Of a stretch of DNA of 64,000 bases, positions 1 through 45,300 are shown piece by piece. The notes beneath the pieces are model-generated. The model worked only from the letters and a program-made list of their open reading frames with translations. It had not been told where the DNA came from and did no database searches. The stretch is from assembly GCA_964399535.1 (NCBI GenBank), contig CAYNRE010000076.1, positions 22,937 to 86,936 of the forward strand, read 5' to 3'. The translations under genes were made by a program, and so were the position numbers. Within the stretch, counting starts at the first letter, position 1, and every line of letters begins with the position of its first letter. This DNA is from an uncultured Pirellulales bacterium (GTDB lineage Bacteria > Planctomycetota > Planctomycetia > Pirellulales > CAYNRE01).

Positions 1-1992
1 TGGGACGAGCTCAGCGAACTGATCCGCCGGGGCGCCTCGTTCAGCGGACACGAACGCAACTGCGCGTTCTTGAACCTGGGCCATGGCCCGTTCGCCAATA
101 TCTCGTCTGTCTCGGGAATCGACTTTGCTGACGACGGGAGAGCCCTGGGAGTGGTCGATGTCGACGTCGATGGCGATCTCGACGTTTGGGTGAGCAACCG
201 CACCGGGCCCCAACTGCGGCTGCTTCGCAATCGGCTGCCCGGGGAACGCCATTTCCTGCAGCTCCGGCTCCACGGCCGCAAGTCGAATCGCGACGCCGTG
301 GGTGCCCGGGCCGAGCTGCGGCTGCCCAGCGGCACCACGCTGGTGCGGGTAGTCCGATCGGGCGAAGGATTCATTGCCCAAAGCAGCAAAGTTCTTCATT
401 TCGGCCTGGGCGAGCACGACACGGTCGCCGGGCTCTCGATTCGCTGGCCTTCGGGATTGGTGCAAGAGCTCGCGGTTCCCCAAGTCGATCGGCGCTGGGA
501 ACTTTTCGAGGGAGACGAGCAGCTTAGCCCCTGGACACGCCCCGGCTCGCCGCTGTCCATGCCCGCATACACGGAGCCGGCCGGCGGGACCGACCCAACC
601 CACGAGCTGGCCGACGATACGACGAGCGACGGCGAACCGCGGGGAAGCCGACTGTTTCTGGCGGGCCGGATGCCGCTGCCGGTCTGCCGCCCCCGCGACG
701 CCGACGGAGAAACGCTGGAACTGGATCGCTTGCCGGGGCGGCCACGGCTGCTGGTACTGTGGGCCAGTTGGTGCCAGCCGTGCCTGGCGGAACTCAAGAG
801 TCTGGTTCGCGCCCGCGACCAACTCGAAGCAAGCGGGCTGGATGTGCTGGCCATGTCGACCGATGCCGCCGATGGCGCGGGCGATGGCCTTACCCAAGCC
901 CGGGCAGCGCTTGAGCGGCTCGAGTTCCCTTGGCCCAGCGTTTACGCCGATTCCGAGCTACTGGCGCGCCTGGAACTTGCGCTGCGGCACTTAAGCGATC
1001 GATGGCGCCCGCTGGGGGTTCCCACCAGCCTGCTACTGGACCGACAAGGCTGGATCGCCGCCGTGTACTTCGGCCCGGTCGAGGTTGAGCAGGTGCTGGC
1101 CGATGCGCAACGGGTCGATCTCGACCCCGTGGAACTCAAAGCGCATGCCGTGCCGTGGCCTGGCCGCTGGAGCTACTCGACCTATCGGGTTGACTTGGCC
1201 AAGCTGGCGGGCGAAATGCTCGAAAAGGGCTCGCCGGCCGATTACCTGCGGTACCTCGAAGCCGACTTCCTGTGGTACCAGCGGCTGGGAGAAAACGCCT
1301 CCGAGGCCGACGTCGCCGCGGCCCGCAACCGCCTGGTCGAGGCCCTGGAACGGTCCGCCCGCGACGCGCTGGCCGAAGGTCGCCCGCACGAAGCGGCCTC
1401 GGCTTTCGCCCAATTGCACAAACTTGCGCCGGACGACGCCGACATCTGGAACAACTGGGGAACCACGCTGGGGCTGAGCGGGCAATGGGAACAAGCGGCC
1501 CATGCCTTCCGCGAGGCTTGCCGCCGGAACCCCAGCCACCGCGAGGCAACCACCAACCTGGCGGGCGCCTTGGAGCGGCTGGGCGATTCCGCGGCCGCGG
1601 CATCGCAGTACGAAGCCATCGTGGCCGTCGACCCCCAGGCCCGCACTGCCCGGAACAACCTGGCCTGGTTGCGGGCCACTCACGCCGACGAGCGCCTGCG
1701 CCGCCCCGACGAGGCCACGCGGCTGGCGGAGGATCTTTGTCGCGAGACCGATTTCCGCCACCCTGGCTATTTGGATACGCTGGCCGCGGCCTACGCCGCT
1801 CAGGGCCGCTACGACCGTGCGAGCGATGTGGCGGCCAGGGCCGTGGAACTGGCCCGAAGCGACCAACCCCAACTGAGCGCCGCGATCGCCGGACGCCTGG
1901 AGCTTTACCGTCAGCGTCGCGCGTACGTTGCCCAGCGCGAGCAGAACCGATTGTCGCCCGCGGCGGCGGCCAGCCCGACTTCGGAGCCCTAA
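1..1992 (+). CDS. 5'-partial FG-GAP/ASPIC-UnbV (CRTAC1-like) protein with TlpA-like thioredoxin domain and C-terminal TPRs
   Basis: Frame 1 is open from base 1 (WDELSELIRRGASFSGHERNCAFLN...), so the gene starts upstream of the window rather than at the TTG at 70. Motifs: DVDVDGDLDVWV (FG-GAP), NRDAVGARAEL/GEGFIAQSS/LHFGLG (ASPIC/UnbV), WASWCQPC (thioredoxin fold), WNNWG/RNNLAW (TPR). Confidence 0.85.
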   Translation, partial: WDELSELIRRGASFSGHERNCAFLNLGHGPFANISSVSGIDFADDGRALGVVDVDVDGDLDVWVSNRTGPQLRLLRNRLPGERHFLQLRLHGRKSNRDAVGARAELRLPSGTTLVRVVRSGEGFIAQSSKVLHFGLGEHDTVAGLSIRWPSGLVQELAVPQVDRRWELFEGDEQLSPWTRPGSPLSMPAYTEPAGGTDPTHELADDTTSDGEPRGSRLFLAGRMPLPVCRPRDADGETLELDRLPGRPRLLVLWASWCQPCLAELKSLVRARDQLEASGLDVLAMSTDAADGAGDGLTQARAALERLEFPWPSVYADSELLARLELALRHLSDRWRPLGVPTSLLLDRQGWIAAVYFGPVEVEQVLADAQRVDLDPVELKAHAVPWPGRWSYSTYRVDLAKLAGEMLEKGSPADYLRYLEADFLWYQRLGENASEADVAAARNRLVEALERSARDALAEGRPHEAASAFAQLHKLAPDDADIWNNWGTTLGLSGQWEQAAHAFREACRRNPSHREATTNLAGALERLGDSAAAASQYEAIVAVDPQARTARNNLAWLRATHADERLRRPDEATRLAEDLCRETDFRHPGYLDTLAAAYAAQGRYDRASDVAARAVELARSDQPQLSAAIAGRLELYRQRRAYVAQREQNRLSPAAAASPTSEP

Positions 1993-2001
1993 GGATTCGC
2001 C

Positions 2002-5000
2002 ATGCCCTCCGCGTCGGAACCCTCCGGAACGCCGCACCGCGGTCGACCGCTTCGCGCGGCGAGCGCGATCGCGCTGCTTCTCGCGGGCCTGGCGCTGCTG
2101 GCCTGGGCCCGTTTCCCCATGCGGGGTCCGGGGAGGCCACCCGAGCCGACCGCGGGCACGGCCCGGCCAGAGGCCAAGCCCCCAGCGGGCACCCCCGCCG
2201 ACCCGACCAGCCTGGCTCGCCCGGCCGAGTCGGCCGCTAGCGGCTTGGCCGCGGCTCCTAGTGCGATCGCCGACGCCGCATTCCAACAGCGCGATAATCC
2301 TCTGGCCGATGGCTGGACCAGCGAAGCGGTGGGGAGCGCGGCGGCGGCGCAACTGGCTCGGCTGGCCCGGCTACTGTCACGGCCCCCGACCGAATGGGAG
2401 GCCGGACTGGCCGAGCTGGTTGCCGAATCGTGGTCGCCCCGGCCGCTGCGGCCGGCCGAACGGAAGCTGGCGTACCAGGCCAAAGGGGTGCGCGTGTTTC
2501 GCGGCGAAGTTCTCACGGGGGACCCACCTCGCGGGCCGGCCCTTACCGGTGGCGCGGCAGCGGCACCGGCAGCAGCGGCGGAAGCACTCGGCCGCCTGGC
2601 CGCCCCGCTGCTGGAGCGGGGTCCGCTTCGGGTCGAGTTCAAACTTTACGAAGTGGAATTGGCCGAGGGGATCGCCAGCACGCGGGTGTACGCCGATTGG
2701 CTTGCCGCCAATGACGATGGCTCGCGGCAGCTTCACGTCGGTTGGCGTTGCGATTGGGCGCTCGGCGCAACCGGCGCCCCCCCGCGCTTGTCCGGCATTA
2801 CCGTCGAGGAGTTCCAAGAGAGCGAATTCCTCGGGCCGGGCCCGCATCCCTGGGCCGACGTCACCGCCGACCTGCTGGGTAGTCAGCCGGCGTTTCGGGA
2901 TCAGCTTCGAATTGGAGTGGTGGGTTGGGCCGAGCGACTGCCGACCGCCCTGGGCCAGGACATTTTCGAGCAACAAGGGCTCGCCATCGGCGATGCCGAC
3001 GGCGATGGCCGCGACGACGTTTACGTCTGCCAGCCGGGTGGGTTGCCCAATCGCTTGTTTCTTCACCAGCCCGACGGGAGTGTCATCGAAGCAGCGGCCG
3101 AGGCCGGGCTCGACTGGCTCGATTTCACCCGCAGCGCCCTCTGGGTCGACCTGGAAAACGACGGCGACCAGGACCTGGTCCTGGCGTTTGCCAGCGAGGT
3201 CGCCACGTATGAAAACGTCGGCGGCGGGCGGTTTCGACCGGCCCAACGCTTCGCCACCGAGGGACGACCCAACGGACTGGCCGCGGCCGACTACGACCGC
3301 GACGGCCTCGTCGACTTGTACGTGGCCTGCTACGGTTCGGGCTACGCCGGCCTGGGCGGAGGCTGGATTCCGCTGCCCTATTTCGACGCTCAGAACGGGG
3401 CCGCCAACTATCTCTTGCGCAACCAGGGGGGGCTGGCCTTCGTCGATGCCACCCGGGCCACGGGGCTCGACGCCGGCAACCAGCGCTGGAGCTACGCGGC
3501 GGCCTGGGAGGACTACGACCGCGATGGCGACCCCGACCTGTACGTGGCCAACGATTTCGGCCGCAACAACCTGTACCGCAACGACGACGGCTTTTTTGTC
3601 GACGTCGCCCGCTCGGCCGGGGTGGAAGATATCGCCAATGGAATGTCGGTCAGTTGGGGCGATTTCAATCGCGACGGCCGGGAGGACCTGTACGTCGGCA
3701 ATATGTGGTCGTCGGCCGGCAATCGAATTACCGTGCAGCGGCAATTCAAACCCGACCTGAGCGATGCCGACCGGGCTCGCTACCAGCGCCTGGCCCGCGG
3801 AAACAGCCTCTTCGCGGGAACTCAAACCGGCGCGTTTCACGACGTGAGCCTGGCCGCCCATGCAACCGTGGGGCGTTGGGCCTGGAGTTCGCTACTGGTC
3901 GACTTCAATAACGACACCTGGCTCGATCTGTTGGTGGCCAACGGATTCATCACCAACATTCAGACGCACGACTTGTGAAGTTTCTTTTGGCGACAGGTCG
4001 TGTCGCGCTCAACCACCGCGGTCGAAGATCCGCGAACCGCCACCTACTACCAGGCCCTGCTGCAGCTCGACCGGCTGGTACGCGGGGGGGCCTCGTGGAG
4101 CGGTCATGAGCGCAATGTCTGCCTGCTCAACACCGCCGACGGCTCCTTCGCCGACTTCTCCTCGGCGAGCGGCTTCGACCTGCTCGACGATGCCCGGGCC
4201 ATCGGCGTGGTCGATTGGGACGGCGACGGCGACCAGGATTTGTGGATCAAGAACCATTCCGCGCCCCAGTTGCGATTTCTCGAAAACCGCTGGCCCGGCG
4301 GCGGCCACTACTGCGCCGTGCGGTTGACCGGGCAGCGCTCAAACCGCGACGGCATCGGGGCCCGAGTCGAAGTCGACCTGGGAGACGGTCGAGCCCCCCT
4401 GGTACGCAGCCTGCGAGCCGGCGAAGGGTATTCGTCGCAAGCCAGCAAATGGATCCATCTGGGGCTGGGAGGCCGCGCCGACCCGGTTCAATTAACCATC
4501 TTCTGGCCGAGTGGCACCATCGATCGGATTGCCGACCTGGCGGTCGACCGCCGGTACACCGTCGACGAGGGGAGCGGTCGCGCCGTTCCCTGGACCACCG
4601 GCGACGATTCCCGCGGGCTAAGCGCGCTGCCGCTGCCGGCCGAGCCCCCCCGGCCAGCCACGGAGCAGAACGTAGCCTTTCCCGCCCCCCTGCCCGACCT
4701 TCGCTTCCGCGATTCCAGCGGCGAAGTGCAATCGGTCCGGGCCGCGGGGAGGCCCCTCTGGATTCAGCTCTGGGCCAGTTGGTGCCAACCCTGCCTTGAA
4801 GAGTTGCAAGCCACGGCCCGAGCGGCCGAGCCGCTTCGTCAATCATCGCTCGACGTACTGGCCTTGAACCTGGAAACGGCCGGCCCCGATCCGGCGGTCG
4901 AACTGCGCCCCGGAGCGGCCGTACTGGAGCAGCTAGGCTGGTCGGCAGGGGCCGGTTGGGCGCTGCCCTCGGTGGTCGAGAAGCTCGAACTTTGGTCGCG

Positions 5001-5973
5001 AACCTCGTATTACTTCGACCGCCCTTTGGCGCTGCCCGCCAGCCTGTTGGTCGACGCCGACAATCGCTTGGTTGCGGTCTACCGAGGCGCGGTGGGGCCC
5101 CAGCTGGTGTTGGCCCGGGCGGCCCAGCTCGGTGCCCAAGCCGAGTTCGCAGGACCGCGGGGGTTGCCCTTTGCGGGTCGCTGGCAGGAGCCACCCGGCC
5201 GCGGCGCCTGGCTCGATCTGGCCGGCGCCTTTCGCCAGGCTGGCTACCGACCCGACGCGCGTCGCTACTACGAGGCCGCGCTGGCGATCCCCGCGACGGG
5301 TCCGAGGGCCGACCTCGAGAATCAATCGGCCCGGGCAGCGCTCGTCGACCTGACCTGGCAAGACGCACTCGACGAATTCGGCATTGGGCACATCGAGCAG
5401 GCCGAATCGCTGCTGCTGCGCGTTTTGGAAATGCAGCCCGACCACGCCGAGGCCCGATACCGCCTGGGCAGGCTGGCCGCGCATGTCCACGATCACGAGG
5501 CAGCCAGGCAGCATTACCGCGCGGCGCTGGCGCTCGAGCCCAAGCACGTTGGAGCCATGGCGAGCCTGGGGCTAAGCCTGCTCCAAGACAACCAGGTCGA
5601 CGAAGCCTTTGCCTGGTTCCGACAGGTTCTGGCGGTGACCCCGCAGTTTCCGGAAATCCAGGCCGCGATTGCTTGGACTCTGGCGACCCACGCCGACCCC
5701 GATCGTCGCAACGCCCGTGACGCGGTGATGATCGCGGAACACCTCTGCCAAAGCACTCAGTATCGGCACTACCCGTACCTTGATCTCTTGGCGGCTGCCT
5801 ACGCCGAACAAGGCGACTTCGCCCGGGCAGTCGAGTTGGCCGACCAGGCGGCCGAACTGGCCGCGGCGGCCGAGTCCGCCCAGCAGGCAGCGGCGATTCG
5901 CGAGCGGGCGCAGCGTTATCGCGAGGGCCAGCCGTATCGCCAGCCCGCGGCCGGCGCGGCCGCGGCGCCCTGA
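2002..5973 (+). CDS. Probable selenoprotein (UGA at 3976-3978 read as Sec, residue 659 of 1323): N-terminal membrane anchor, FG-GAP repeats, ASPIC/UnbV domain, thioredoxin-like WCQPC domain, TPRs. The alternative annotation is two ORFs, 2002-3978 and 4000-5973.
   Basis: ORFs 2002..3978 and 4000..5973 share a frame. The 21 nt between them read SFFWRQV with no stop. The FG-GAP/ASPIC fold continues across the TGA, the GTG at 4000 has no SD sequence, and a SECIS-like hairpin follows the TGA. Confidence 0.8.
3976..4006 (+). promoter_or_regulatory. UGA codon plus bacterial SECIS-like element (selenocysteine insertion sequence)
   Basis: TGA(3976-3978), 11-nt spacer AGTTTCTTTTG, then stem GCGACA(3990-3995) / loop GGTCG / TGTCGC(4001-4006), a perfect 6-bp stem. 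It has the same 11+17 layout and CAGGUC apex as the E. coli fdhF SECIS minihelix. Confidence 0.75.
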
Positions 5974-6016: not shown

Positions 6017-8281
6017 TTATTGGCGCGGCACCTGGCGCCAGTCGGGACGCGGGGGTACGGCGGCCCCCAAGCTGCCGCGCCGCAGGGCGTAGTACTGCTC
6101 GATCGGCCGATCGTCCGACAGCGCCGCCACCGGGGCGCCCGCCAAAAGCGCCCCCGGGTTGGCCTCGCGGGCGAGAATGCGGGCAGCCAGGCTGTCGAGC
6201 GTTTCCCCCGGGCTCCAGGCCAACAAATCGGCCTGTGCGGCCGCGGGCATGCGAGCCGCCATGGCCCGGGGCGATATTTCCGGAAACGGCTGGTTGGATG
6301 CCAGGTAGTGCATGCCCGTGCCCTCGTACGCGCGAAATACTCGGACAAAAGCAAACGAGCGGCTCATCGCCGCCAGCACGGCTCGCCCCACGGCGGGCTC
6401 GCTCTCCGGCATCCAAAGCTGAAACACGCCGCTAGGCGACAGGCGAGCCCCCGCCTGCGCAAAAAACTCGCTCGATAGCACTTGAGTCGCCCCGGGCCAC
6501 TCCAGCGGGCGAGGCGGATCGACAACGATCAGGTCGAACGGTTCCGGCCAGCAACGCAGAACGCGGCGCGGGTCGTCGTTCACCAGCCGCGGGGCCGAAG
6601 CCGACTGGTTCGTTTCCCACGCTTGCTGGTCGCGAACCACGGCGAGCAGCGCGGGAGACGCGTCGACCACCAGCAGGTCCATTCCCCAGCTTTTCAGGCT
6701 GCGAACCCCGGTCCCCAGGCCGGCTCCGATCACCAGGCCGCGCCGCGGTAGTTCTCGACAAAGACAACCCGCCAGATGCACGCTTACCTTGTCGAGTTGA
6801 TCGGGCCGCGCTCGGCCGACTCCGCCGATGGCTAGCCCCGAGGCGCTCTGGCCGGGTTCGCCAAACACCACGGCGGTTACGCGGGCATCGCGGTACACCC
6901 GGCAACCCTGCGCGACGACAAACGCGTCGAAGCTTTGGGCTCCGGCGAACACCGCCACGAACAGACCCAGCCCAAGCAGGCTGGCCGCGATCCACCGTGG
7001 GCGGAGCGTGGCTTCGAGCCACCAGGGAATACTTGCCGCCAGGGCCGCCCCCAGAATGACCGCCGCGCCGCTGGCGTAAGGAAGCACGCCCCAGCACAGT
7101 ACCAGCGAGCCGGCGAGCAGTCCGCCGGTCCACCAGGCCAGGCGGCTGCAGGCCTCGGAAAGCAGACAACCCCGCGGACCTTCCAGGGCGTAAACCGTCA
7201 GCCAGCCGAGCCCGATTCCAGCCGGGCACCCGGCCAAACAAGCCGCCCAGGGGGGCGCCGACCGGCGGGGGTCGCCCACGACGACAATCAGCGCCAGGGC
7301 CATGGCGGTAAACAGGCAAGCGCTGCCGGGGCGCGGCAAAACGCCCCGCCCGGCCCCTTGGCGCGCGGCCCAGCCCATTCCCAGGGCGAAGGCGATTCCG
7401 GCACCGATCGTCAGCGCGGCGCGGAAATACACCGTGGGCAACAGGAGCAAGTCCAGCGCGCGCCAGGTAGCTAAGCTCCAGCAAGCGACCAAGATTCCTG
7501 CGCCCATCCAACCCGCCGGCCCCAGCAACCGGCCACCGCGCTCCCTCGGGCCTTCGCGCGGCGCGAAGCGATCCGCGTCTTTCGACTTGCGGCGCGATGA
7601 ACGCGACCGCCGCGGCGCGCCCGTAAGACCGCCGAAACCGGCCAGCAGCATTGCGGCCAGATGCAGCCCAACCGCCGCCCAACCCAAACGAGTGAACCCC
7701 CCCAGCTCAATCAAGGCGAACTTCGCGGCGGCAAACCCCGTTAGCCCACCGACCAGCGCGGCCAGGGCGACCAGGCTCAGGCGGGGAACGCCGGCTTCTC
7801 GCTCCGCCGGCACGACCTCGGCCGCGGCCCGTAGCGTGGCCCCCGCCACGGCGCCCAGCAGCGCGGCCACGGCGCCGGCGCACAGAACTGCTCCCCAGGA
7901 GGTACACGGCAAGGGTCCCGAACCGGCCCAGGGCCAGGGTAGCCCGGCTGGCCACGGCAGGGGGAGCAAAAACGCGATGGCAAAGGCAAGGGCTCCGCCA
8001 CCTAGCCGTGCGGCCAATCGGCGACGGGCGGACGAAGCATGGGCTTGGCCGCGACGACGCCGCGCGGACCACCATCGAGCACCCCACGCGCTTCCGGCGC
8101 CGATTCCGCCCAGCGTCGCCAGCTCCACTGCCAGGGTCTGACCGCAGGCGGCCTGGATTCGGTTCCAAGCCAGCAGAAACTCTCCGGCCCAGGCCGCGCC
8201 CGCGGCGCCGCAAACGAGCAGAAGTGGCAGTGCCGCGCTTTTGCCCGGTTCGACCGAAGTCAACGGCGAGGGGTTCGACAT
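6017..8281 (-). CDS. Multi-pass membrane protein fused to a spermidine-synthase-like SAM-dependent methyltransferase domain (~754 aa)
   Basis: Many hydrophobic helices are followed by GLVIGAGLGTG (motif I), FDLIVVDPP and SSEFFAQAGARLSPSGVFQLW. The start is moved to ATG 8281 because the upstream in-frame extension overlaps the cytochrome gene. Confidence 0.75.
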   Translation of the reverse strand: MSNPSPLTSVEPGKSAALPLLLVCGAAGAAWAGEFLLAWNRIQAACGQTLAVELATLGGIGAGSAWGARWWSARRRRGQAHASSARRRLAARLGGGALAFAIAFLLPLPWPAGLPWPWAGSGPLPCTSWGAVLCAGAVAALLGAVAGATLRAAAEVVPAEREAGVPRLSLVALAALVGGLTGFAAAKFALIELGGFTRLGWAAVGLHLAAMLLAGFGGLTGAPRRSRSSRRKSKDADRFAPREGPRERGGRLLGPAGWMGAGILVACWSLATWRALDLLLLPTVYFRAALTIGAGIAFALGMGWAARQGAGRGVLPRPGSACLFTAMALALIVVVGDPRRSAPPWAACLAGCPAGIGLGWLTVYALEGPRGCLLSEACSRLAWWTGGLLAGSLVLCWGVLPYASGAAVILGAALAASIPWWLEATLRPRWIAASLLGLGLFVAVFAGAQSFDAFVVAQGCRVYRDARVTAVVFGEPGQSASGLAIGGVGRARPDQLDKVSVHLAGCLCRELPRRGLVIGAGLGTGVRSLKSWGMDLLVVDASPALLAVVRDQQAWETNQSASAPRLVNDDPRRVLRCWPEPFDLIVVDPPRPLEWPGATQVLSSEFFAQAGARLSPSGVFQLWMPESEPAVGRAVLAAMSRSFAFVRVFRAYEGTGMHYLASNQPFPEISPRAMAARMPAAAQADLLAWSPGETLDSLAARILAREANPGALLAGAPVAALSDDRPIEQYYALRRGSLGAAVPPRPDWRQVPRQ

Positions 8282-8306
8282 TCGGGTGCGCTCCGCCCGC
8301 CTGGCC

Positions 8307-9767
8307 TTAGAAACCTGCGTCGCCCGGGGAAGGCGATGCGGCCGGTTCGCCGGAAGATCGACGCTCTTCGGCCGCTGAATCTGTCTCGCCGGGCACGGTT
8401 TGCGCCTCGCTCTCCCACAACCGCAAGACTCGTTCCGCCAGCTCGCGATCGATTCGGATCTGATGATCGCGCATTCGCAACGGGGCAAGGTTGTTCTGGT
8501 CCGGCGTGTTGAACGTGATGTCGCTGATCGACTCGACCTTCGAGAGATGACAGTCGATGCAGTTCGCTCGCCCCCGAGCGCCCGCCCTGGGGAGCAAGCC
8601 ACACGATTCGACCTGATGGCAGCGCACGCAACGAGAAGAATACGCGGCCAGGTCGCCGCGCTGCCGGGCATGGGGGTCATGGCAAGAGGTGCAGGTCAGT
8701 TCCTCGCTGGCCTGAAAGCAACGCGACCGGCACAGCCGAGGCAACTGGTTGTTGCTATGCAGATCCAGCCGGGCCTGTTCGATCTCCGAGCCAAGGTCGA
8801 CATACTCGGCCAGCACGTCGCCGGGGCGAAAATCGAACGCGGGGCGCAACAGCCGGCCCACCGCGGAGTGGCACTGACCGCAAATTTCCAGTTGGCGCAT
8901 CCGCGGCAGCCGCACCGGATTGACGATCGCCCTGCCGGTTTTGTCCTGAGGGTTGCCCTGGTGCCAGGCAGCGTGCTCGCTTCCCGGCCCGTGGCACCGC
9001 TCGCAGGAAACCCCCAGCAACGCCTGGCTGCGTGTATAGGTGTTCGTCGTTCCCGGTTCGTATTCCAGCCAGGTCGCGTGGCAATCCAGGCATCGCGGAA
9101 TGATCGGCCGGTCGAACCAAACCTGGCCATCGACATAGTTGGGGCTGTTCACCCAGGCGTCTAAGCTCGAGAGATAGGTAACCGGCATCTGAAACAATTG
9201 GTTCTCGCGCCAGTAAAGGTACGATTGTCCCAGCTTGCCGGAACCAGTGACGATGTCGATTCGCTCGCTGCGCCGCCGGGGCGGTTGGCCCTCGACCGCC
9301 GTTTGGTACCAACCGTCGTCGCGGCGCGTCATCTCAAACCAGACGTCGGGGCGACGGGTGTTCATCCGCTGACCGGGCCCCGTAAAATCGCCGAGCAAGC
9401 TCTCCTCCGAAGGCCACCGCGACGTTTGCGCGTGCGAGGTGTGGACGTACGAGGCGTAGTACGCGGCGTGGCAGCCTTGGCACGACTGGGCACCCAGGAA
9501 GCGGGCCTTTCGCAGCCAATCGCTTGGCGGCGCTGCCCGAGACGCGCCGCCCCCTGCCGCCGGCTCGGCCCACACGTTCCGAGGCCCCCACCCGGTCCGA
9601 GGCCGCCACAGGGTCCGGGCAGCTCGGTCGTCGCCGGTCCCCAAGCCCCAGGCCAGGAGCACCGCAACGGCTACGCACGCGCCCCCCACCCACCGGCCCG
9701 ACCCGCCTCGCCCAGCGGAGCGGCCGGGTGCCAGGCCTTGGTCGATGTTGCGTCGCCCTGGTCCCAT
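8307..9767 (-). CDS. Multiheme c-type cytochrome (7 CxxCH motifs) with N-terminal hydrophobic anchor/signal
   Basis: Motifs CQGCH, CLDCH, CERCH, CGQCH, CTSCH, CVRCH, CIDCH, plus an extra CRSRC. The start is uncertain (ATG 9767 chosen; the ORF is open to 10010). Confidence 0.85.
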   Translation of the reverse strand: MGPGRRNIDQGLAPGRSAGRGGSGRWVGGACVAVAVLLAWGLGTGDDRAARTLWRPRTGWGPRNVWAEPAAGGGASRAAPPSDWLRKARFLGAQSCQGCHAAYYASYVHTSHAQTSRWPSEESLLGDFTGPGQRMNTRRPDVWFEMTRRDDGWYQTAVEGQPPRRRSERIDIVTGSGKLGQSYLYWRENQLFQMPVTYLSSLDAWVNSPNYVDGQVWFDRPIIPRCLDCHATWLEYEPGTTNTYTRSQALLGVSCERCHGPGSEHAAWHQGNPQDKTGRAIVNPVRLPRMRQLEICGQCHSAVGRLLRPAFDFRPGDVLAEYVDLGSEIEQARLDLHSNNQLPRLCRSRCFQASEELTCTSCHDPHARQRGDLAAYSSRCVRCHQVESCGLLPRAGARGRANCIDCHLSKVESISDITFNTPDQNNLAPLRMRDHQIRIDRELAERVLRLWESEAQTVPGETDSAAEERRSSGEPAASPSPGDAGF

Positions 9768-9988
9768 GTCCGGCCTAGAAGGAAGAGAGTCGCTTGCCGC
9801 AACAGGTCGTGCGCACCGCCTGCACGTCACCCACCGGCAACCGACGAACTCGATTCTAGTCGGCCGGGCCGGGCTGCGCGAGCCATACCGGGCGGTTTCC
9901 GGCCCCCCCGGGGGTTGGCTGCCGTGGGCGATGCGGCCCGGCGGGGGGTCGAGCCACGATTGGCTCGGCACCGGGCCCGCGGTCGGTT

Positions 9989-9994
9989 TATAAT
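9989..9994 (+). promoter_or_regulatory. Possible sigma70 -10 box for the TPR gene
   Basis: Perfect TATAAT in an AT-richer divergent intergenic gap about 90 nt upstream of ATG 10086. No convincing -35 box. Confidence 0.35.
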
Positions 9995-10085
9995 CCATGG
10001 TAACGAACACAGCCGATCGAGTGAGCGGTGAATTCTTGGGGGATCGCCGCGCGATGGCTGATTAGGTGCGGGGCGCGTCCGTCGT

Positions 10086-26994: not shown

Positions 26995-29067
26995 TTACTG
27001 CGGCCCGGCAGGGCAATACTGCTTGAGCCAAGCGAAGATCTCCTGGTGCCAGAAGACGCTATTGGCGGGCTTCAGAACCCAGTGCCCCTCGTCGGGGAAG
27101 TTGATCATCTTCGAGGGCACCCCCAACCGCTGCAGCACGGTGAACATCATCAGCCCCTCGCCCACCGGCACGCGAAAATCCTGATCGTTATGAATGATCA
27201 GCATGGGCGTTTTGAAATTGCCGGCGAACAGGTGCGGAGAATACTTTTCGTACGATTCGCGGTTCACCCAGGGTGGGCCGCCGTGTTCCCACTCGTCGAA
27301 CCAAATCTCTTCAGTGCTGGCGTACATGCTGTCGAAATTGAACACGCCGCAGTGGCAAATCAGCGTGCGGAACCGGTCGGTGTGGCCGGCGAACCAGTTC
27401 ATCATGTAGCCGCCGAAACTGGCCCCGGCAGCCGCCATCCGCTGCGGGTCGACATAGGGCAGCCGGGCCAGGTAATCGGCTCCGGCCATCAGGTCCTCGA
27501 AACACTTGCCGCCCCAGTCGCCCGAAATCTCGTTCACGTACTGCTGCCCAAAGCCGGTGCTCCCGCGCGGATTGGGCATGGCCACCACATAGCCCTGGGC
27601 GGCCCATACCTCGGGGTTCCAGCGGTAACTCCAACTATCGGTCCAGGCCCCCTGCGGTCCGCCATGCACCAGGTACACCAGCGGCCATCGCTGGGACGGA
27701 TCGAACCCCGGCGGCTTCAGAATCCACATCTGCATCGGCGTGCCGCCGGCCCCCGGCACGTCGACGCTCTCCGGGCGAGGCAAATCGAGCCTGGCCAACA
27801 GCTCGCGGTTCGCCTGACTCACCACGGTCAGCTTGCCGCTGCCGTCGATCAGGCACACTTCGGGCGGGCTGCTCATGGTTGCTCGCAGGGCGGCGGCGCG
27901 CTCGCCGGAGTTGGCCGCCGATAGCGACGCGATCGACCCGCCCGTGGCGAAGGGCTTGGGCCCGCCCCCGTCGCGGGGCACGCGATACACCGACGTAGCG
28001 CCGCGCACTTCGGCCAGAAACAACAGTGCACTACCATCGGCGGTCCAGAGCAATTGATCGACCGAGGCATCGAGCTCGGCCGTAAGCGAGCGCGCCTTGC
28101 CTCCGGCCGCGGGGCGCACGTAAAGCTGCCAGCGGTCGGCTTCGAACCCGGCCTGCGACTGGGCGCGGTAGGCCAGCCACCGGCCGTCGGGCGAAAACCG
28201 CGGACAGCCGTCGGCCGCGGGATTGTCTTCGGTAAGGTTCTCGGCCGGCCCCCCCTCGATCGAGACCCGCCACAGGTCGTGATTCGTATTCCATGCCTCG
28301 TTCACTTGGGCCGGCGCCGTGAATACCAGGGCCCGGCCATCGGGCGTAAAGGTGAAGTCGTCGCCCACCGAAAACGTGGTCGACGTGGGATAGGCATCCC
28401 AATCGCCAGGCGTCACGTCGCGGGGTTCGCCCCCCGAGGCCGGCAAGACGAACAGGTGCTGGCGCTTCCCCTCGACCCAACTATCCCAGTGGCGAAAGAA
28501 CAACCGGTCGAACACCCGGGCCTTGACCGGGTTCTTTTCGGCCTCGTCGATCCGCCGCTGGTGGGCCGCGTCGGCCTCGGCCGGCGCGAGCGAGGAGTAT
28601 TCCGGAAACACCGCCGAGACGAACGCGATCCACTTTCCGTCGGGCGACCAGAGGGCCCCCGAGGCTTCGCTGGCCAACCGGGTGAGTTGGCGTGCCTCGC
28701 CCCCATCGACGTCGATCACCCACAACTGCAAGCTGCCCGAGCGATTGGACTGAAACAACACCTGCTTGCTGTCGGGGCTGAAGCGGGGATGCGAGTCTTT
28801 CTTGTCGGTGGTGGTGAGCTGGCGCGGCGCCCCACCCTCGGTCGAAACGAGCCAAAGCGTGGAACTGGTCGAGTTCTTGGCCACGTCGGCCCGCGTGGCT
28901 ACGTAAACCACCCACCGCCCGTCGGGGCTGATTTCCGGGTCGGCCAGTCGCTCGATGGCCAACAAATCGTCGACGGTCATGGGGCGGCCCTCGGCCGCCG
29001 CGCTCGCATGGCGGATGGTCAAGCTCAGTCCCCCCAGAAAAACGACAAGCCAGGTGAGTCGCTGCAT
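26995..29067 (-). CDS. Secreted S9-family (prolyl oligopeptidase/acylaminoacyl-peptidase-like) serine peptidase, 690 aa
   Basis: Signal peptide, PD40/TolB-like propeller repeats (PRFSPD), HGGPQG, GASFGG nucleophile, DFRVP Asp, EGHW His. Confidence 0.92.
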   Translation of the reverse strand: MQRLTWLVVFLGGLSLTIRHASAAAEGRPMTVDDLLAIERLADPEISPDGRWVVYVATRADVAKNSTSSTLWLVSTEGGAPRQLTTTDKKDSHPRFSPDSKQVLFQSNRSGSLQLWVIDVDGGEARQLTRLASEASGALWSPDGKWIAFVSAVFPEYSSLAPAEADAAHQRRIDEAEKNPVKARVFDRLFFRHWDSWVEGKRQHLFVLPASGGEPRDVTPGDWDAYPTSTTFSVGDDFTFTPDGRALVFTAPAQVNEAWNTNHDLWRVSIEGGPAENLTEDNPAADGCPRFSPDGRWLAYRAQSQAGFEADRWQLYVRPAAGGKARSLTAELDASVDQLLWTADGSALLFLAEVRGATSVYRVPRDGGGPKPFATGGSIASLSAANSGERAAALRATMSSPPEVCLIDGSGKLTVVSQANRELLARLDLPRPESVDVPGAGGTPMQMWILKPPGFDPSQRWPLVYLVHGGPQGAWTDSWSYRWNPEVWAAQGYVVAMPNPRGSTGFGQQYVNEISGDWGGKCFEDLMAGADYLARLPYVDPQRMAAAGASFGGYMMNWFAGHTDRFRTLICHCGVFNFDSMYASTEEIWFDEWEHGGPPWVNRESYEKYSPHLFAGNFKTPMLIIHNDQDFRVPVGEGLMMFTVLQRLGVPSKMINFPDEGHWVLKPANSVFWHQEIFAWLKQYCPAGPQ

Positions 29068-31728: not shown

Positions 31729-33438
31729 TCAGGGCTCCACGTCGTCCGAGACGAGGGCTGCCTTAAGTTCTTCCGCCGGGCTGGCCTGGGGACCAACCGG
31801 CAGCGGGCGGCGAGCGGTTTGCCGCAGATGGTCGACCAGGTGGCCCAACAGCTCGGCCACGCGTGGCTGATGCTCGGGCAACTGGGCCAGGTTGGTGGTT
31901 TCGTGCGGGTCGGTCTCCAGGTCGTAAAGCTCGATCTCGACACCGGCCGGGGGCCGGAGCGTGGCATAACCATCGGTGCGAGCCACCTGCCCCAGCCGAT
32001 AGATCAGCTTCCAGCGCTGGTCGCGAATGAGCGCTTCTTCGTTGGGAGCATACTCCACGACGACCCTGGGGCGATGCTCCGTGGCCCGGCGCTCGAGTAG
32101 CAGCCAAAGCGACTCGCCCGCCAGGTCGTCGGTCAGCGGCAGCCCGGCCCACTCTAGCACCGTGGGGGCCACGTCGACCAACTCGACCAAGGCCGACGAA
32201 ACGCCCCCGGGCTCCACTCGGCCCGGCGCGGCAACCAGCAGCGGCACCCGAATGGCCTCCTCCCAGCTACAGTGCTTTTCGAATCGACCGTGGTGGCCAA
32301 GCAGGTAGCCGTGGTCGCCCAGAAACACGATCAACGTGTCGTCTTGGCGCCCTGCGCGCTCGAGCGAGTCGAGCAACCTCCCCACGCTGGCATCGAGAAA
32401 CGCCACCGAAGTATGGTAGGCCGCGGCGATGCCCCGCTTCTCAGCGTCGGTCAATTCGGCGAACACCTCGGGAATCTGCCGCTGGTCGGAGCCGCTCACC
32501 GGCGGTACCGCGAATTGCTCGGGCGAAACCCGGCCCGCGTATTCGATCGGAAAATGAAACGGCGAGTGCGGTTCGTAAAAGCTGACAAACAGCAGAAACG
32601 GTGCTTCGCCGGCTGCCGTGAGCCACTTGGCGGCTTCATCTACGAGGTAGCTCGAGGCCATCTCTGGCTCGCGCAGCGCATAGGGCAGCACCTGGCTGTT
32701 CAGCCAGATGCGGGCCGGATCGCGAAACGGCTTCCACGGCCCCAGCGTCGCCAGCTCCGCGGGCAGCGGCTCGCCCGGATGACCCGCCAGGAAGCCGCGG
32801 TGGTCGGCCAGGTCGACCCGGGTTTGAAAGCCATGCTGCAGCTGGCTGTTGAAATGCATTTTTCCCAGCGCGGCGGTCAAGTAGCCGGCCGCCGCAAAGC
32901 GATCGGCCAGCGTCACCGCCGATTCGGGGAGCGGCGTGCCGAGCTTGGTAACCCCCAGCGAGCGCGGGTAGCGGCCCGTGAGCAGCGACTGTCGCGAGGC
33001 CGTGCAGACCGGCGAGTTGCAGAAAGCCCGCTCGAACCGCATTCCCGCGGCCGCCAACCGATCGAGCCGTGGCGAGAGGCAATGGGGGTTGCCATAACAG
33101 CCTAGGGCGTGTGCAGCCAGGTCGTCGGAAACAATGACCAGCACGCTGGGGCGCCGGGCTTGGGCTGGCAAGGGGGTCGTCGGGCCGACGGCCAGTAGCA
33201 CCAGGAGCGCTGCCCCGAGGGCTTTGGCGGCGATCGCGTGCCGGCGGAATCGGCTGGTCGGGCCCCGCGTGGACCACCAACCCGCGCCCGATGGCGTCCG
33301 GACCGAATCGACTGGCGTGGCGACCGAGCTGGGCAGCGGGTTTCCCGTCGCGATTCCGTCAGGGTGTGACATACGGTTGTCACTCGAGGTCGTCATTCTG
33401 GTATCTACGGACGGGGGTGAGGTTTCCACGGTTTCCAT
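31729..33438 (-). CDS. Secreted sulfatase (formylglycine type); start uncertain, probably further downstream
   Basis: VLVIVSDD, CTASRQSLLTG (Cys-type FGly motif), GKMH, YEPHSPF, GDHG, EKH, WKLI; signal-like stretch ending LPAQA. Confidence 0.88.
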   Translation of the reverse strand: METVETSPPSVDTRMTTSSDNRMSHPDGIATGNPLPSSVATPVDSVRTPSGAGWWSTRGPTSRFRRHAIAAKALGAALLVLLAVGPTTPLPAQARRPSVLVIVSDDLAAHALGCYGNPHCLSPRLDRLAAAGMRFERAFCNSPVCTASRQSLLTGRYPRSLGVTKLGTPLPESAVTLADRFAAAGYLTAALGKMHFNSQLQHGFQTRVDLADHRGFLAGHPGEPLPAELATLGPWKPFRDPARIWLNSQVLPYALREPEMASSYLVDEAAKWLTAAGEAPFLLFVSFYEPHSPFHFPIEYAGRVSPEQFAVPPVSGSDQRQIPEVFAELTDAEKRGIAAAYHTSVAFLDASVGRLLDSLERAGRQDDTLIVFLGDHGYLLGHHGRFEKHCSWEEAIRVPLLVAAPGRVEPGGVSSALVELVDVAPTVLEWAGLPLTDDLAGESLWLLLERRATEHRPRVVVEYAPNEEALIRDQRWKLIYRLGQVARTDGYATLRPPAGVEIELYDLETDPHETTNLAQLPEHQPRVAELLGHLVDHLRQTARRPLPVGPQASPAEELKAALVSDDVEP

Positions 33439-41665: not shown

Positions 41666-42303
41666 TACCACCCCCCCCACAGGACACACCGATTCGAGCA
41701 GGCCGGGTGGGGTCCGTCGCGCGGTTCGGACCGGCAACCAGACCCAAAAAACTGGGGCCTATCGAGCCCGGGCTGGGCACGCGCCGCAGCCGGGGCAGGA
41801 TACCGGTCGCGCGCGGCATACTCAACGTTGCTTTAAGAACCTTTAGCGCAGGAAATGCTTGTGTGTCGGGTTGACGGGGTTATGCTAGCTTTTGCCTTCT
41901 CGCCCGTATCGTTCGAGGTGCATTTGGTGGGGAACTCGACGGCCGGGTGGAAGGTACTCGCAGGACCATGGTCTGCCCAATCGCCAGGGTCGGTTGCGCG
42001 CTAAGCAAGGCAGGGCAACTACCCCAGCAACCCGCCGGGTCGCATCCCACCGATCGTCGGGCGTAAGCGCCAGTCGCAGAAAGCAGTAGGTAAGTCGTTG
42101 GCACGCTGGGCTCGCGAGGCGGTTTGCCGCTCGGGCCAAGTCGCTGCTCGCACTGGTCAACCGACCGGCGCCGGGCAAGCGCTCGCGGCGTGAGAACTTC
42201 CCATCACCAGCGGACGTTCTGCTCACATCGATTCGACGCCGAGAATGGCCCCACACGTGGGCGACTGGATGATTGCGCCACCGAGCCACTAGAGAGGACT
42301 CTC

Positions 42304-45300
42304 GTGCAACACAGCGCAGCGCGGGACGGACAGGAGACAGTACAGACCCCGCCGGGCGACCGACCATCAGGCTGCCCCCCACGAGCCCGCCTGGGCGAGG
42401 TGCTGGTTCTAGGCCCAGCCGGCGCCGCCGGATCGGGAATCGCGATCGCCGCTTCGCGCGCCGATGCCTGTGGGCTTTTGGACTGGACCTGTGCGCCGGA
42501 AGCCGTCTCGGCCGACGACGAATGCCTTGCCCCCTTGGTGACCGAAACCCGGCGCCTCGGCGCGCAAGCGGGCGAGCGATTCGGGTTGGTGCTGTGGGGC
42601 CGGCTGGGGATCGTTGAATCGGCCGCTCTGGCGGCGATCGATCGTTGCCACACGCTGCTGCTGGTGCCCACGACCGATCGTCACGAATTGGCCGAAGCCT
42701 ATGCGCGGGCGCGGCTGATCGCCTCTCGGGTGGGCCTCGTCGTGGCCGATTCCGCGCAGGCCGCTTGGGCCGCGGAACTGGGAGCCGACCTGGTGGTCGC
42801 CAAGGGGCATGAAGCCGGCGGTTTCGTGGCCGACGAAACCACGTTCGTCCTCGTGCAGCGGCTTTTGGCCTGGGGCCGGCTCCCGGTGATTGCCTGGGGG
42901 GGGATCGGCGTCCGTTCGGCCGCGGCCGTCAGCGTGGGAGGCGCCGCGGGGGTCGCGCTCGATTGGCCCTTGGCGCTGCTCGGCGAGTCGGCCCTGCCCC
43001 CTGGCTTCCGCAAGCGTCTGGCCAGCATGGATGGGAGCGAGACCGTGGCCGTGCGCGGGCCCGACGGTCGCTGGCTGCGGTTCTATCATCAGCCGGGCAT
43101 GACCGCCCTGGAGCGGCTGGAACGGCTGGCCGACGAATTGGCCACGGCCGACCAAGCCCCCGGCGAGAAGCTTCGCGCCTGGCGGCAAGTGGTGGGGGAA
43201 TTAGCCTCCCGGGCCGGCGAAAAAGATCGGCTCTGGACGACCGGGCAAGATGCCTGTTTCGCCGCCGGTTGGGCCCAGCGCTGCCCCTCGGTGGGGCGCT
43301 TCCTGCGCTTGTTTCGCGAGCAGACCGACCAGGCGCTGGCCGATTGCCGCGCCAGCCGGGTCCTGGCCGCCGGCAGCGAGCTGGCCCAATCGCACGGCAC
43401 CGAATTCCCCGTGGTTCAAGGGCCCATGACCCGGGTCAGCGACGTGGCCTCCTTCGCCCGCGCCGTGGCCGATGGCGGCGGGCTTCCCTTTTTGGCGCTG
43501 GCCCTGATGAGCGGCGGACAAGCCCGCCAACTGCTCAGCGAAACCAAGCAATTGCTCGGCCAGCTTCCCTGGGGCGTGGGCGTATTGGGCTTTGTGGGGC
43601 GCGAGCTGCGCGCTGAGCAGTTTGCCGCCATCGAAGAAGTAGCGCCCCCGTTTGCCATCATCGCCGGCGGGCGCCCCGACCAGGCTCAATCGCTCGAGGC
43701 CCGGGGTATCAAGACCTATCTGCACGTTCCCAGCCCGGGCATGCTCTCGATGTTCCTGGCCGAGGGAGCGCGGCGGTTCATTTTCGAAGGTCGCGAATGC
43801 GGCGGGCACGTGGGCCCACGCTCGAGCCTGGTGCTGTGGGAGACCATGATCCAGGTCTTGCTCGACGCGCCGCTCGACGAGGCACAGGCCCGCGGCGTTC
43901 ACGTGTTGTTCGCCGGTGGAATTCACGACGGGTTGGGGGCCGCCATGGTGGCGGCGCTGGCCCAGCCGTTGGTGGCGCGGGGGATGAAGGTCGGCGTGCT
44001 GCTGGGCACCGCCTATCTGTTCACGCGCGAGATCGTGGAGACCGGCGCGATTCTCGAGGGCTTTCAACAACAGGCCCTGGCGACCGAGCGTACCGTGCTA
44101 CTGGAAACCGGGCCCGGTCACGCCACGCGCTGCGCCGCGACCCATTTCTACGACGTTTTCGAGGAAGAGAAACGCTCGCTCCGTCGCCAACAATTGCCGG
44201 CCGAACAAGTCCGCGAAGAGCTGGAGAACCTGAACCTGGGGCGGCTCCGTATCGCCTCCAAGGGCATTACCCGCCGTACGAGCGAATCCTCGGGCCAGAG
44301 CGAGCTGGTCCACGTGGAAGCTGCCGAACAGGCCCGGGAAGGCATGTTCATGATCGGCCAGGTGGCCGCCCTGCGGCATGAGCCGACCACGGTTCGCCAG
44401 TTGCACCAGCAGGTCTGCGGCGGGGCCACCGAGCGCTTGGCCCAACTGGCCCCCCGGCCCGAGCCCGAGCGCTTCGAGCTGGTCTCTGAGCCGGCCCCGC
44501 CCCCGCTGGATATCGCCGTGATCGGCATGTCGTGCCTGCTGCCCGGCGCACATGACCTGACCCAGTACTGGCACAATATCCTTGCCAACCGCGACTTGCT
44601 CACCGAGATTCCCCAAGATCGCTACGAGTGGCAGCGGTGGTGGAACGAGGACCGCAAGGCCCGCGACAAAATCTACAGCCGTTGGGGCGGCTTCCTCGAC
44701 GACGTGGCGTTCGACCCGCTCAAGTACGGCATTCCCCCCTCGGCCCTCAAGAGCATCGAACCGATTCAACTGTTGGCCCTGGAGCTGGTCGACCGGGCCT
44801 TGCGCGATTCGGGCTACGATGCCCACAACCCACACAAAGACCGCACCGCCGTCATGTTCGGAGCCGGCGGCGGCATCGCCGAGTTGGGGGCCGGTTACGC
44901 GGTGCGCTCGATGCTGCCGCAGTACCTGGAAAACCCCGACGAGCGGCTCTGGTCGCAACTACCCGAGTGGACCGAAGACAGCTTTGCCGGCATTCTGATG
45001 AACGTGATCGCCGGCCGGGTGAGCAATCGCTTCGACCTGGGGGGTGTGAACTACACGGTCGACGCGGCTTGTGCCTCGTCGCTGGCCGCGATTTACCTGG
45101 CTTGCCGCGAACTGGCCGACGGGACCGCCGACCTGTGCATTACCGGCGGCGTCGACACGCTGCAAAGCCCGTTCAGCTACCTCTGTTTCGGCACGGCGGG
45201 CGCGCTCTCGCCCCGCGGCAAATCGCGCACCTTCGATGCCTCGAGCGACGGCATCGCCATTAGCGAAGGCCTGGCCGCCGTGGTGCTCAAGCGGCGGGCC

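Follow-up and report, generated by a model that had tools for sequence, protein, structure and literature searches.

The stretch of DNA analysed here, called the window below, comprises 64,000 nucleotides from an uncultured Pirellulales bacterium (assembly GCA_964399535.1, contig CAYNRE010000076.1). Near its beginning, two long open reading frames (ORFs), 2002..3978 (658 aa, starting with ATG) and 4000..5973 (657 aa, starting with GTG), share one frame, as an earlier note on this DNA had claimed: translation of 2002-5973 yields 1323 residues with a sole internal stop at codon 659, a TGA that stands between ...NGFITNIQTHDL and SFFWRQVVSRS... (junction peptide NIQTHDL-stop-SFFWRQVVSRS), and the gene ends on a second TGA at 5971-5973. 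The 11-nt spacer and the 17-nt hairpin GCGACA-GGTCG-TGTCGC, which the note had placed after the internal TGA, lie exactly there. Very probably, UGA 3976 is decoded as selenocysteine (Sec), residue 659 of a single 1323-residue protein, and the hairpin serves as its selenocysteine insertion sequence (SECIS) element; the comparison of related loci carries the case for this reading.

The proposed protein combines a probable signal anchor, FG-GAP/VCBS propeller repeats, a UnbV_ASPIC domain, a thioredoxin-fold domain and C-terminal TPR repeats (Table 1), and the Pfam matches agree with the domains named in the note, FG-GAP/ASPIC in cis to a WCQPC thioredoxin domain and TPRs. The hydrophobic segment A19-A36 probably places the rest of the protein outside the cytoplasm; the N-terminus of P0121, an orthologue with Cys in place of Sec, is likewise signal-peptide-like. 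Around WCQPC (residues 927-931) Pfam Redoxin gives a weak match, and the NCBIfam TlpA model scores 43 bits, well below its 230-bit cut-off; the thioredoxin domain thus appears to be a domain relative of TlpA, not a TlpA orthologue.

Table 1. Features of the proposed selenoprotein gene and of its neighbours in the window
Feature	Position	Strand	Basis or remark
Single recoded coding sequence, 1323 residues, proposed Sec at residue 659	2002..5973	+	one frame, one internal TGA
N-terminal hydrophobic segment A19-A36, probable signal anchor	2056..2109	+	read from translation
FG-GAP/VCBS beta-propeller repeats, approximate limits	2989..3966	+	Pfam FG-GAP_3 E=2.6e-36 (6 stretches), FG-GAP E=1.1e-15
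In-frame TGA, proposed selenocysteine codon (residue 659)	3976..3978	+	TGA in 78/80 protein-similarity loci
Spacer between UGA and hairpin, 11 nt, agtttcttttg (Ser-Phe-Phe codons and TG of Trp)	3979..3989	+	equal length in all listed TGA loci
SECIS-like minihelix, stem 3990-3995/4001-4006, loop GGUCG 3996-4000	3990..4006	+	RNA fold, covariation
Cys707 (HERNVC), candidate resolving cysteine	4120..4122	+	co-occurs with TGA; putative role
UnbV_ASPIC, residues 784-853	4351..4560	+	Pfam PF07593 E=5.9e-15, 55.3 bits vs cut-off 23.4
TlpA/ResA-like thioredoxin-fold domain; WCQPC, CxxC codons 4783-4794	4678..5121	+	nearest PDB sequence TlpA 1jfu, E=1.3e-10
C-terminal TPR repeats, residues 1068-1310	5203..5931	+	multiple Pfam TPR families; TPR structural matches of orthologue model
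Tandem upstream paralogue, C-terminal part only	1..1992	+	translation aligns from ...RRGASFSGHERNCAFLN...
887-aa ORF, no Pfam match	6017-8680	-	
Multihaem cytochrome c	8307-10010	-	
TPR protein, ~1440 aa	10086-14423	+	
TPR protein, ~1440 aa	14619-18929	-	
S9 peptidase with PD40 repeats	26995-29067	-	
Sulfatase	31729-33438	-	
Long ORF, 1775 aa	33899-39226	-	
Long ORF, 2996 aa	42124-51114	+	
Long ORF, 1952 aa	51018-56876	+	~100-nt overlap with 42124-51114

The internal stop is preserved in the relatives of the gene. In 80 related loci gathered by protein similarity from species-representative genomes of Planctomycetota, Verrucomicrobiota and Acidobacteriota (together with a few oddly labelled bins), the codon at the site is TGA in 78, TCG in one and TAC in one, and never TAA or TAG. 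Past the TGA the frame is open, and S-[FV]-[FY]-W-R-Q-V-V as well as the later domains are conserved in all loci. A DNA pattern scan for TGA and the following codons gave at least 120 matches, and after deduplication the TGA set comprises at least 148 distinct loci from ~118 assemblies, all of them metagenome-assembled or single-amplified genomes (MAGs or SAGs); in 148 of the 148 loci listed the stop at the site is TGA, in none TAA or TAG. Complete genomes among the carriers are OZ242040.1, OZ250177.1, OZ220742.1, CP030884.1 and CP170459.1. The family has expanded within genomes: the Akkermansiaceae assembly UBA7890 (DLRK01) holds at least six separate loci with TGA and hairpin (L012, L032, L066, L097, L177 and L190), and several other assemblies hold two to four each. 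Reassignment of TGA in the genetic code was considered and rejected, because the window uses TGA as a normal stop: it terminates 5 of the 16 largest ORFs (the gene in question among them), next to TAA in 10 and TAG in one. A preference for TAA is unexpected in sequence this G+C-rich (68%).

A rival account of the locus is two separate genes or an artefact: a TGA that is a real stop, followed by an ORF translated from GTG 4000 or, in a pseudogene, not at all, or else a sequencing error. Gene callers and the NCBI annotation indeed split the locus, as the earlier note had foreseen: a public relative, L290, is annotated as 407 aa + 683 aa, the split products bear names such as 'VCBS repeat-containing protein, partial' and 'redoxin domain-containing protein', and a U residue occurs in none of 240 retrieved family proteins. 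When a 267-residue query spanning the junction was used and the best 120 database homologues were examined, ~60 ended exactly at ...DL, ~35 began a variable distance past the stop and ~23 spanned it; the homologues ending exactly at ...DL are a signature of split gene calls. The starts assigned to the downstream fragment scatter from 7 to 50 codons past the TGA, and the start codon is not conserved; the separate product from 4000 that the note had named as a contrary outcome is thus not borne out. A purine-rich stretch resembling a Shine-Dalgarno sequence is not visible upstream of GTG 4000, a point that carries little weight. Further arguments against separate genes are that every locus keeps in frame the peptide SFFWRQVV, which precedes any start that could be used past the TGA, that the stop is always TGA though TAA is the commonest stop in the window, and that orthologues with Cys or other residues in place of the TGA are contiguous proteins of 1000-1335 aa. 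A sequencing error, in turn, cannot recur in ~118 assemblies. Altogether, two genes, a pseudogene or an error are extremely improbable.

The hairpin gives the second line of evidence. In the window, gcgaca-ggtcg-tgtcgc forms a 17-nt element with a 6-bp stem and a 5-nt loop; RNA folding predicts exactly this structure, and the local segment folds at -9.5 kcal/mol. The wider 71-nt fold is unremarkable (z = +0.8 against shuffles), and a single sequence is therefore no proof by itself; the case for more than chance comes from comparison. Among TGA loci the consensus is GCGRCA-GGUCG-UGYCGC, starting 11 nt past the TGA. TGA-less homologues encoding the same SFFWRQVV peptide served as a control (80 loci from metagenomes, 82 scored): a perfect hairpin with all six base pairs is found in 139 of the 148 listed TGA loci, with 8 more at 5/6, as opposed to 0/82 TGA-less loci; the loop is GGTCG in 136/148 versus mostly GGTGG; and the mean minimum free energy (MFE) is -9.7 kcal/mol versus -4.8. 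Since homologues with the same peptide lack the hairpin when they lack the TGA, the hairpin would be a SECIS element and not something that the peptide brings with it. Freezing of synonymous sites is confined to the TGA-bearing genes: for the 78 protein-similarity loci, a TGA group without pattern bias, third-position entropies at Val7, Val8 and Ser9 are 0.51, 0.20 and 0.44 bits, compared with 1.63, 1.76 and 1.49 in the TGA-less group, while flanking codons are free to vary in both groups alike. Covariation points in the same direction. Across 105 distinct sequences 98.7% of cells are paired, three of the six pairs show compensatory changes, and double-change cells number 34 against 2.0 in shuffles, none of 500 shuffles reaching as high; pairing falls to 14-67% in slid controls. 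The pattern of the DNA scan fixes most stem positions of the loci found by it and leaves pair 18-28 free, which occurs as AU (42), GU (36), GC (15), CG (8) and UA (1); the compensations GCGACG/CGTCGC and GAGGCA/TGCCTC are also present in the unbiased protein-similarity set.

These features agree with what is known of bacterial SECIS (bSECIS) elements. The published bSECIS model specifies a loop of 3-9 nt with a G in its first two positions, a stem of 4-16 bp, 16-37 nt from UGA to loop and an MFE <= -7.5 kcal/mol (PMC13188914). With a 5-nt loop starting GG, a 6-bp stem, a UGA-to-loop distance of 17 nt and -9.5 kcal/mol, the window element fits on all four counts; the SECIS scoring suggested in the earlier note thus comes out in favour of the hairpin, to which the covariation adds. 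A different role for such a structure would be to stimulate read-through of UGA by a standard tRNA (near-cognate Trp or Cys), which would produce the full-length protein without selenium. Downstream RNA structures promote stop-codon read-through in other systems, and Sec machinery is not seen in the window, as this explanation would have it; yet the element has the spacing, the size and the GG(U) loop of a SelB-dependent SECIS, redox-competent orthologues replace the codon with Cys and never with Trp, and SelA is found in one carrier assembly. Standard-tRNA read-through is thus very unlikely.

The residues that replace Sec in relatives, and those that accompany it, bear on a chemical role. A scan for TGY at the site found eight real family members. 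L283 (Phycisphaerales SJ659, GCA_020852275.1, JADZBE010000032.1, 6999-7030; protein P0127) has TGC together with ERNC, WCPNC and a fully intact 17-nt hairpin, GCGACAGGTCGTGTCGC, the apparent trace of a very recent change from Sec to Cys or else of a single-base difference in the assembly. In L281 (Ca. Polarisedimenticolia), TGC goes with ERKC and WCAPC, and the hairpin has decayed to 4/6; P0121 is a Cys orthologue with the same ERNC and WCxPC residues. Among the assemblies that carry Cys forms is DASXTC01 of Polarisedimenticolia. Five Bryobacterales loci (L279, L280, L285, L287 and L289) and L286 carry Cys at the site in the absence of the CxxC. The Bryobacterales Cys clade has no ERNC either and shows another conserved Cys (GWNC) instead. 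Hence, when homologues of the DLxSFFWRQVV segment are aligned as the note had advised, x is an in-frame TGA in at least 148 distinct loci and Cys in a few orthologues; the outcome that it had named as contrary, a site never occupied by Cys or TGA, did not occur.

Two further redox motifs go with the TGA. A Cys no more than two residues past an ERN motif, ~47 residues downstream of the TGA, is present in 103/126 TGA loci versus 0/35 TGA-less ones, and in the same alignment column Cys stands in 95/133 TGA loci, as opposed to V or I in 79/79 TGA-less loci. The CxxC, ~272 aa past the TGA, is found in 127/131 TGA loci versus 2/78 TGA-less loci of the soil type, and of the two WCxPC cysteines, one is conserved in 126 and the other in 125 of 133 TGA loci. 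Soil-type TGA-less loci read [S/A/G]xx[C/S] there; at the x of the DLxSFFWRQVV segment, a redox-degenerate sister group shows S, A, G, D or N. The co-occurrence of TGA with Cys706/707 and WCxPC, both of which are degenerate in TGA-less relatives, suggests a selenol/thiol relay. The link between Sec and CxxC is strong, not absolute.

A further possibility is that UGA and SECIS act mainly as a selenium-dependent switch between a 658-residue anchored propeller and the full redox protein, selection acting on the ratio of isoforms and not on Sec chemistry. UGA recoding in bacteria is partial, with an efficiency of 30-40% in E. coli according to PMC4513850; truncation would fall on a domain boundary, past the last propeller strand, and the site tolerates D, N, S, A or G in relatives. 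Such a switch would add to Sec insertion and would not replace it, and the tie of the TGA to Cys706 and WCxPC, together with Cys orthologues that keep the same residues, points to a chemical role of the residue itself. A switch as the main function is therefore considered unlikely.

Decoding of the UGA as Sec requires us to consider the Sec machinery. A protein search with the SelA of L346 (see below) retrieved at least 120 SelA proteins, many of them labelled Planctomycetota and some adjoining SelD, and Sec-using Planctomycetes, Verrucomicrobia (including Rubritalea marina) and Acidobacteria have been described (Peng et al. 2016, Table S2). Among 120 random matches of a genome scan for the SelA motif around the lysine that binds pyridoxal phosphate was L346 (CAYWNK010000202.1), an ORF of which scores 403 bits on the selA model TIGR00474 (cut-off 267.9); this contig belongs to the same assembly, CAYWNK01, an uncultured Planctomycetaceae bin (binchicken_co366_43), as the family locus L123 (CAYWNK010000137.1), where the TGA, with 621 open codons on its 5' side and 576 on its 3' side, is accompanied by the hairpin and WCAPC. 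Sec machinery is thus present in these lineages and, as SelA, in at least one carrier assembly. Four further Planctomycetota SelA proteins come from assemblies outside the list of TGA carriers. Elsewhere in Planctomycetota, selA lies beside or near a selD-like gene with AIRS/AIRS_C domains (L412 5705-6709; L414 9036-9431), and selA adjoins tRNA-Sec in L292 (a Verrucomicrobiae MAG) and L349 (a Phycisphaeraceae MAG).

Several observations weigh against Sec decoding or against the relay and have to be set beside this evidence. None of selA, selB, selC and selD was found in the 64-kb window or in the ~1.7 Mb of flanks of related loci: ARAGORN reports no tRNA-Sec in the window, which has no tRNA gene of any kind, or in any family locus, and approximate E. 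coli SelD and SelB probes gave no tblastn match in 1.7 Mb (window and loci L001-L198). The co-occurrence of SelA and L123 is a single case resting on metagenomic binning, no carrier showed selB, selC or selD within the loci, their flanks and the SelA motif scan, and the carriers seen are uncultured MAGs or SAGs without exception. At gathering thresholds Rfam has no match in the whole window, a search of 3940-4060 at E<=10 gave neither a SECIS nor a tRNA-Sec family, and the stem of the window element is a perfect 6 bp without the bulged U17 of the E. coli SECIS. At the Sec position, Cys is unusually rare: in the ~106 of 120 full-length spanning homologues in which the site could be scored, it is D in 34, N in 26, S in 16, C in 8, A in 6, G in 6, E in 5, Y in 2, Q in 2 and R in 1, so that D, N, S, A or G is frequent among relatives, and the redox residues accompany only 2-4 of the 8 Cys. 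Some relatives keep WCxPC although the site is R, S, E or G. Finally, the putative Sec-Cys706-CxxC relay is drawn from co-occurrence and helix positions. Taken with these points, the conservation of the TGA, the hairpin tied to it, the Cys orthologues and a stop that is never TAA or TAG still support the selenoprotein reading of the earlier note.

A structural frame is provided by an AlphaFold model of the Cys orthologue P0121 (1184 aa, ~38% full-length identity with the window protein; 70 aligned sequences), with a mean pLDDT of 90.9 and a pTM of 0.91. In this model Cys644, the equivalent of Sec, opens helix 644-654 (CSFFWRQVVAQ) directly past the last propeller strand, and the CxxC (917-920) lies at the N-terminus of helix 918-929. 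The N-termini of helices are typical positions of reactive thiols or selenols. The top Foldseek match of the model is murine CRTAC1 (9etn_A, E=5.9e-22, TMt 0.74); next come ResA, TlpA and DsbE, which match the thioredoxin domain, and then TPR proteins.

On this basis, the gene could work in the following manner: At UGA 3976, the hairpin 11 nt downstream would act as a bacterial SECIS and recruit SelB carrying Sec-tRNA(Sec), and selenocysteine would be inserted as residue 659; when selenium or SelB is missing, translation would stop and leave only the 658-residue propeller fragment. The product would be an exported, membrane-anchored protein in which a CRTAC1-like, Ca-binding FG-GAP propeller is joined to ASPIC/UnbV, a TlpA/ResA-like thioredoxin domain and TPRs. 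Sec659, at the N-terminal end of the SFFWRQVV helix, may serve as a redox-active selenol, reacting with an oxidised substrate and then forming a selenenylsulfide with the nearby family-specific Cys (706/707). The selenenylsulfide would possibly be recycled by the fused WCxPC domain, to which a membrane reductant such as CcdA/DsbD may supply electrons. The co-occurrence of Sec with Cys706/707 and WCxPC, and the position of both Cys644 and the CxxC at helix N-termini in the P0121 model, support such a Sec-Cys-CxxC relay; for the relay and an extracytoplasmic redox function the chances are judged to be roughly even. A wider conjecture is considered less likely than not: the protein might be the founding member of a major overlooked class of extracytoplasmic selenoenzymes, in which a CRTAC1-like propeller bears the Sec and brings along a thioredoxin domain for its recycling. 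Genomes of marine and soil Planctomycetota, Verrucomicrobiota and Acidobacteriota would hold several copies each, so that the class could make up a large share of their selenoproteomes and perform chemistry new to selenoproteins, e.g. periplasmic turnover of peroxide, disulfide or metal(loid), and the UGA might be a selenium-sensing isoform switch.

The surroundings of the gene contain a further relative. The upstream paralogue at 1-1992 has ERNC, WCQPC and TPRs; the window begins ~24 codons past its TGA-equivalent position. Another locus, L010, carries a divergent upstream paralogue at 4022 (+) with an in-frame TGA (...EVDL-TGA-SDLWRAVV...); 10 nt past this TGA lies the hairpin GGCGTGC-GGTC-GTGCGCT, and 633 codons are open before the TGA and 370 past it. 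A combined hairpin and ORF scan of the flanks for other selenoprotein genes found only family members and L010; a U-motif scan of the flanks was too noisy to use. No sel genes are among the neighbours in the window between 6017 and 33438.

The family is absent from the catalogues that were checked. Table 1 of a 2026 review lists 119 prokaryotic selenoprotein families and subfamilies with domain identifiers, and FG-GAP, VCBS and UnbV_ASPIC occur in none of the 119 (PMC13188914). The family has no model of its own in NCBIfam 20.0, whose selenoprotein models all score below their cut-offs; the highest, WAxxUGC_long, reaches 24 of the required 300 bits and aligns solely with the thioredoxin domain. 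In open-access full text, no paper was found that links selenoprotein or selenocysteine with ASPIC, FG-GAP, VCBS, CRTAC1 or UnbV; the family goes unmentioned in the deep-Sep, BSepDB and GOS papers, and the literature searched yielded no selenoprotein or redox function for CRTAC1-type proteins. Taken together, the locus appears to represent a new family of bacterial selenoproteins with a canonical SECIS. Standard searches rely on Sec/Cys pairs, and 'nearly all' known families have many Cys homologues (PMC13188914); the scarcity of Cys forms is a plausible reason why such searches missed this one.

For annotation, the consequence is practical: hundreds of public loci are now split into a 'VCBS repeat protein, partial' and a 'redoxin/ASPIC domain protein', and a simple rule, DL-TGA-SFFWRQVV followed by GCGRCAGGUCGUGYCGC, could repair them. 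Families with few Cys homologues, which are missed by Sec/Cys-pair searches, can be large and multi-copy, and selenium use by bacteria of the Planctomycetes-Verrucomicrobia-Chlamydiae (PVC) group and by Acidobacteriota is therefore probably underestimated. The gene is also the first found to hint that the CRTAC1/ASPIC propeller family may have a redox or selenium function, and it offers a testable Sec-Cys-CxxC relay. The near-invariant putative SECIS, overlapping a conserved peptide across three phyla, is a natural case of dual coding constraint, and L283, with TGC and an intact hairpin, is an apparent snapshot of a very recent Sec/Cys switch.

Among known systems, the closest counterpart of the hairpin is the SECIS of E. 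coli fdhF, whose upper stem-loop comprises 17 nt at positions 15-31, 11 nt from the UGA (PMC8659212). Counted from the U of the UGA, window positions 3990-4006 are likewise nucleotides 15-31, and both elements have GGUC in the apical loop and lie within coding sequence; they differ in that the window loop is the 5-nt GGUCG, with G and U one position before G23 and U24, and in that the conserved lower helix, which together with the bulged U17 makes the E. coli element 40 nt long, is absent from the window element, as judged from sequences and folds of the TGA loci. The likeness to fdhF drawn in the earlier note thus stands for the spacing, the 17-nt length and the GGUC loop, but not for the U17 bulge, which is missing, or for the register of GGUC, which is shifted by one base; the element is fdhF-like and not identical to the E. 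coli SECIS. Whereas bSECIS elements usually differ between families, that of the window family keeps a frozen nucleotide sequence in three phyla.

As to the protein, the family shares with the catalogued selenoprotein families a single Sec per protein, a SECIS directly past the UGA and a likely redox role, but Cys homologues are rare in it and many in nearly all of the known ones. Like the CRTAC1/ASPIC-UnbV family (crystal structure 9etn), it has FG-GAP_3, FG-GAP and UnbV_ASPIC matches above gathering thresholds and a CRTAC1-like fold, to which the window clade adds the proposed Sec, the extra Cys, the TlpA-like domain and the TPRs. With the TlpA/ResA/DsbE reductases it has in common the thioredoxin fold and a WCxPC at a helix N-terminus; with PilB, a thioredoxin-MsrA/B fusion, it would share the fusion of a recycling thioredoxin domain to a catalytic module. 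In contrast to the catalogued 'UxxC' thioredoxin-like selenoproteins, the Sec of the window family does not lie within the CxxC.

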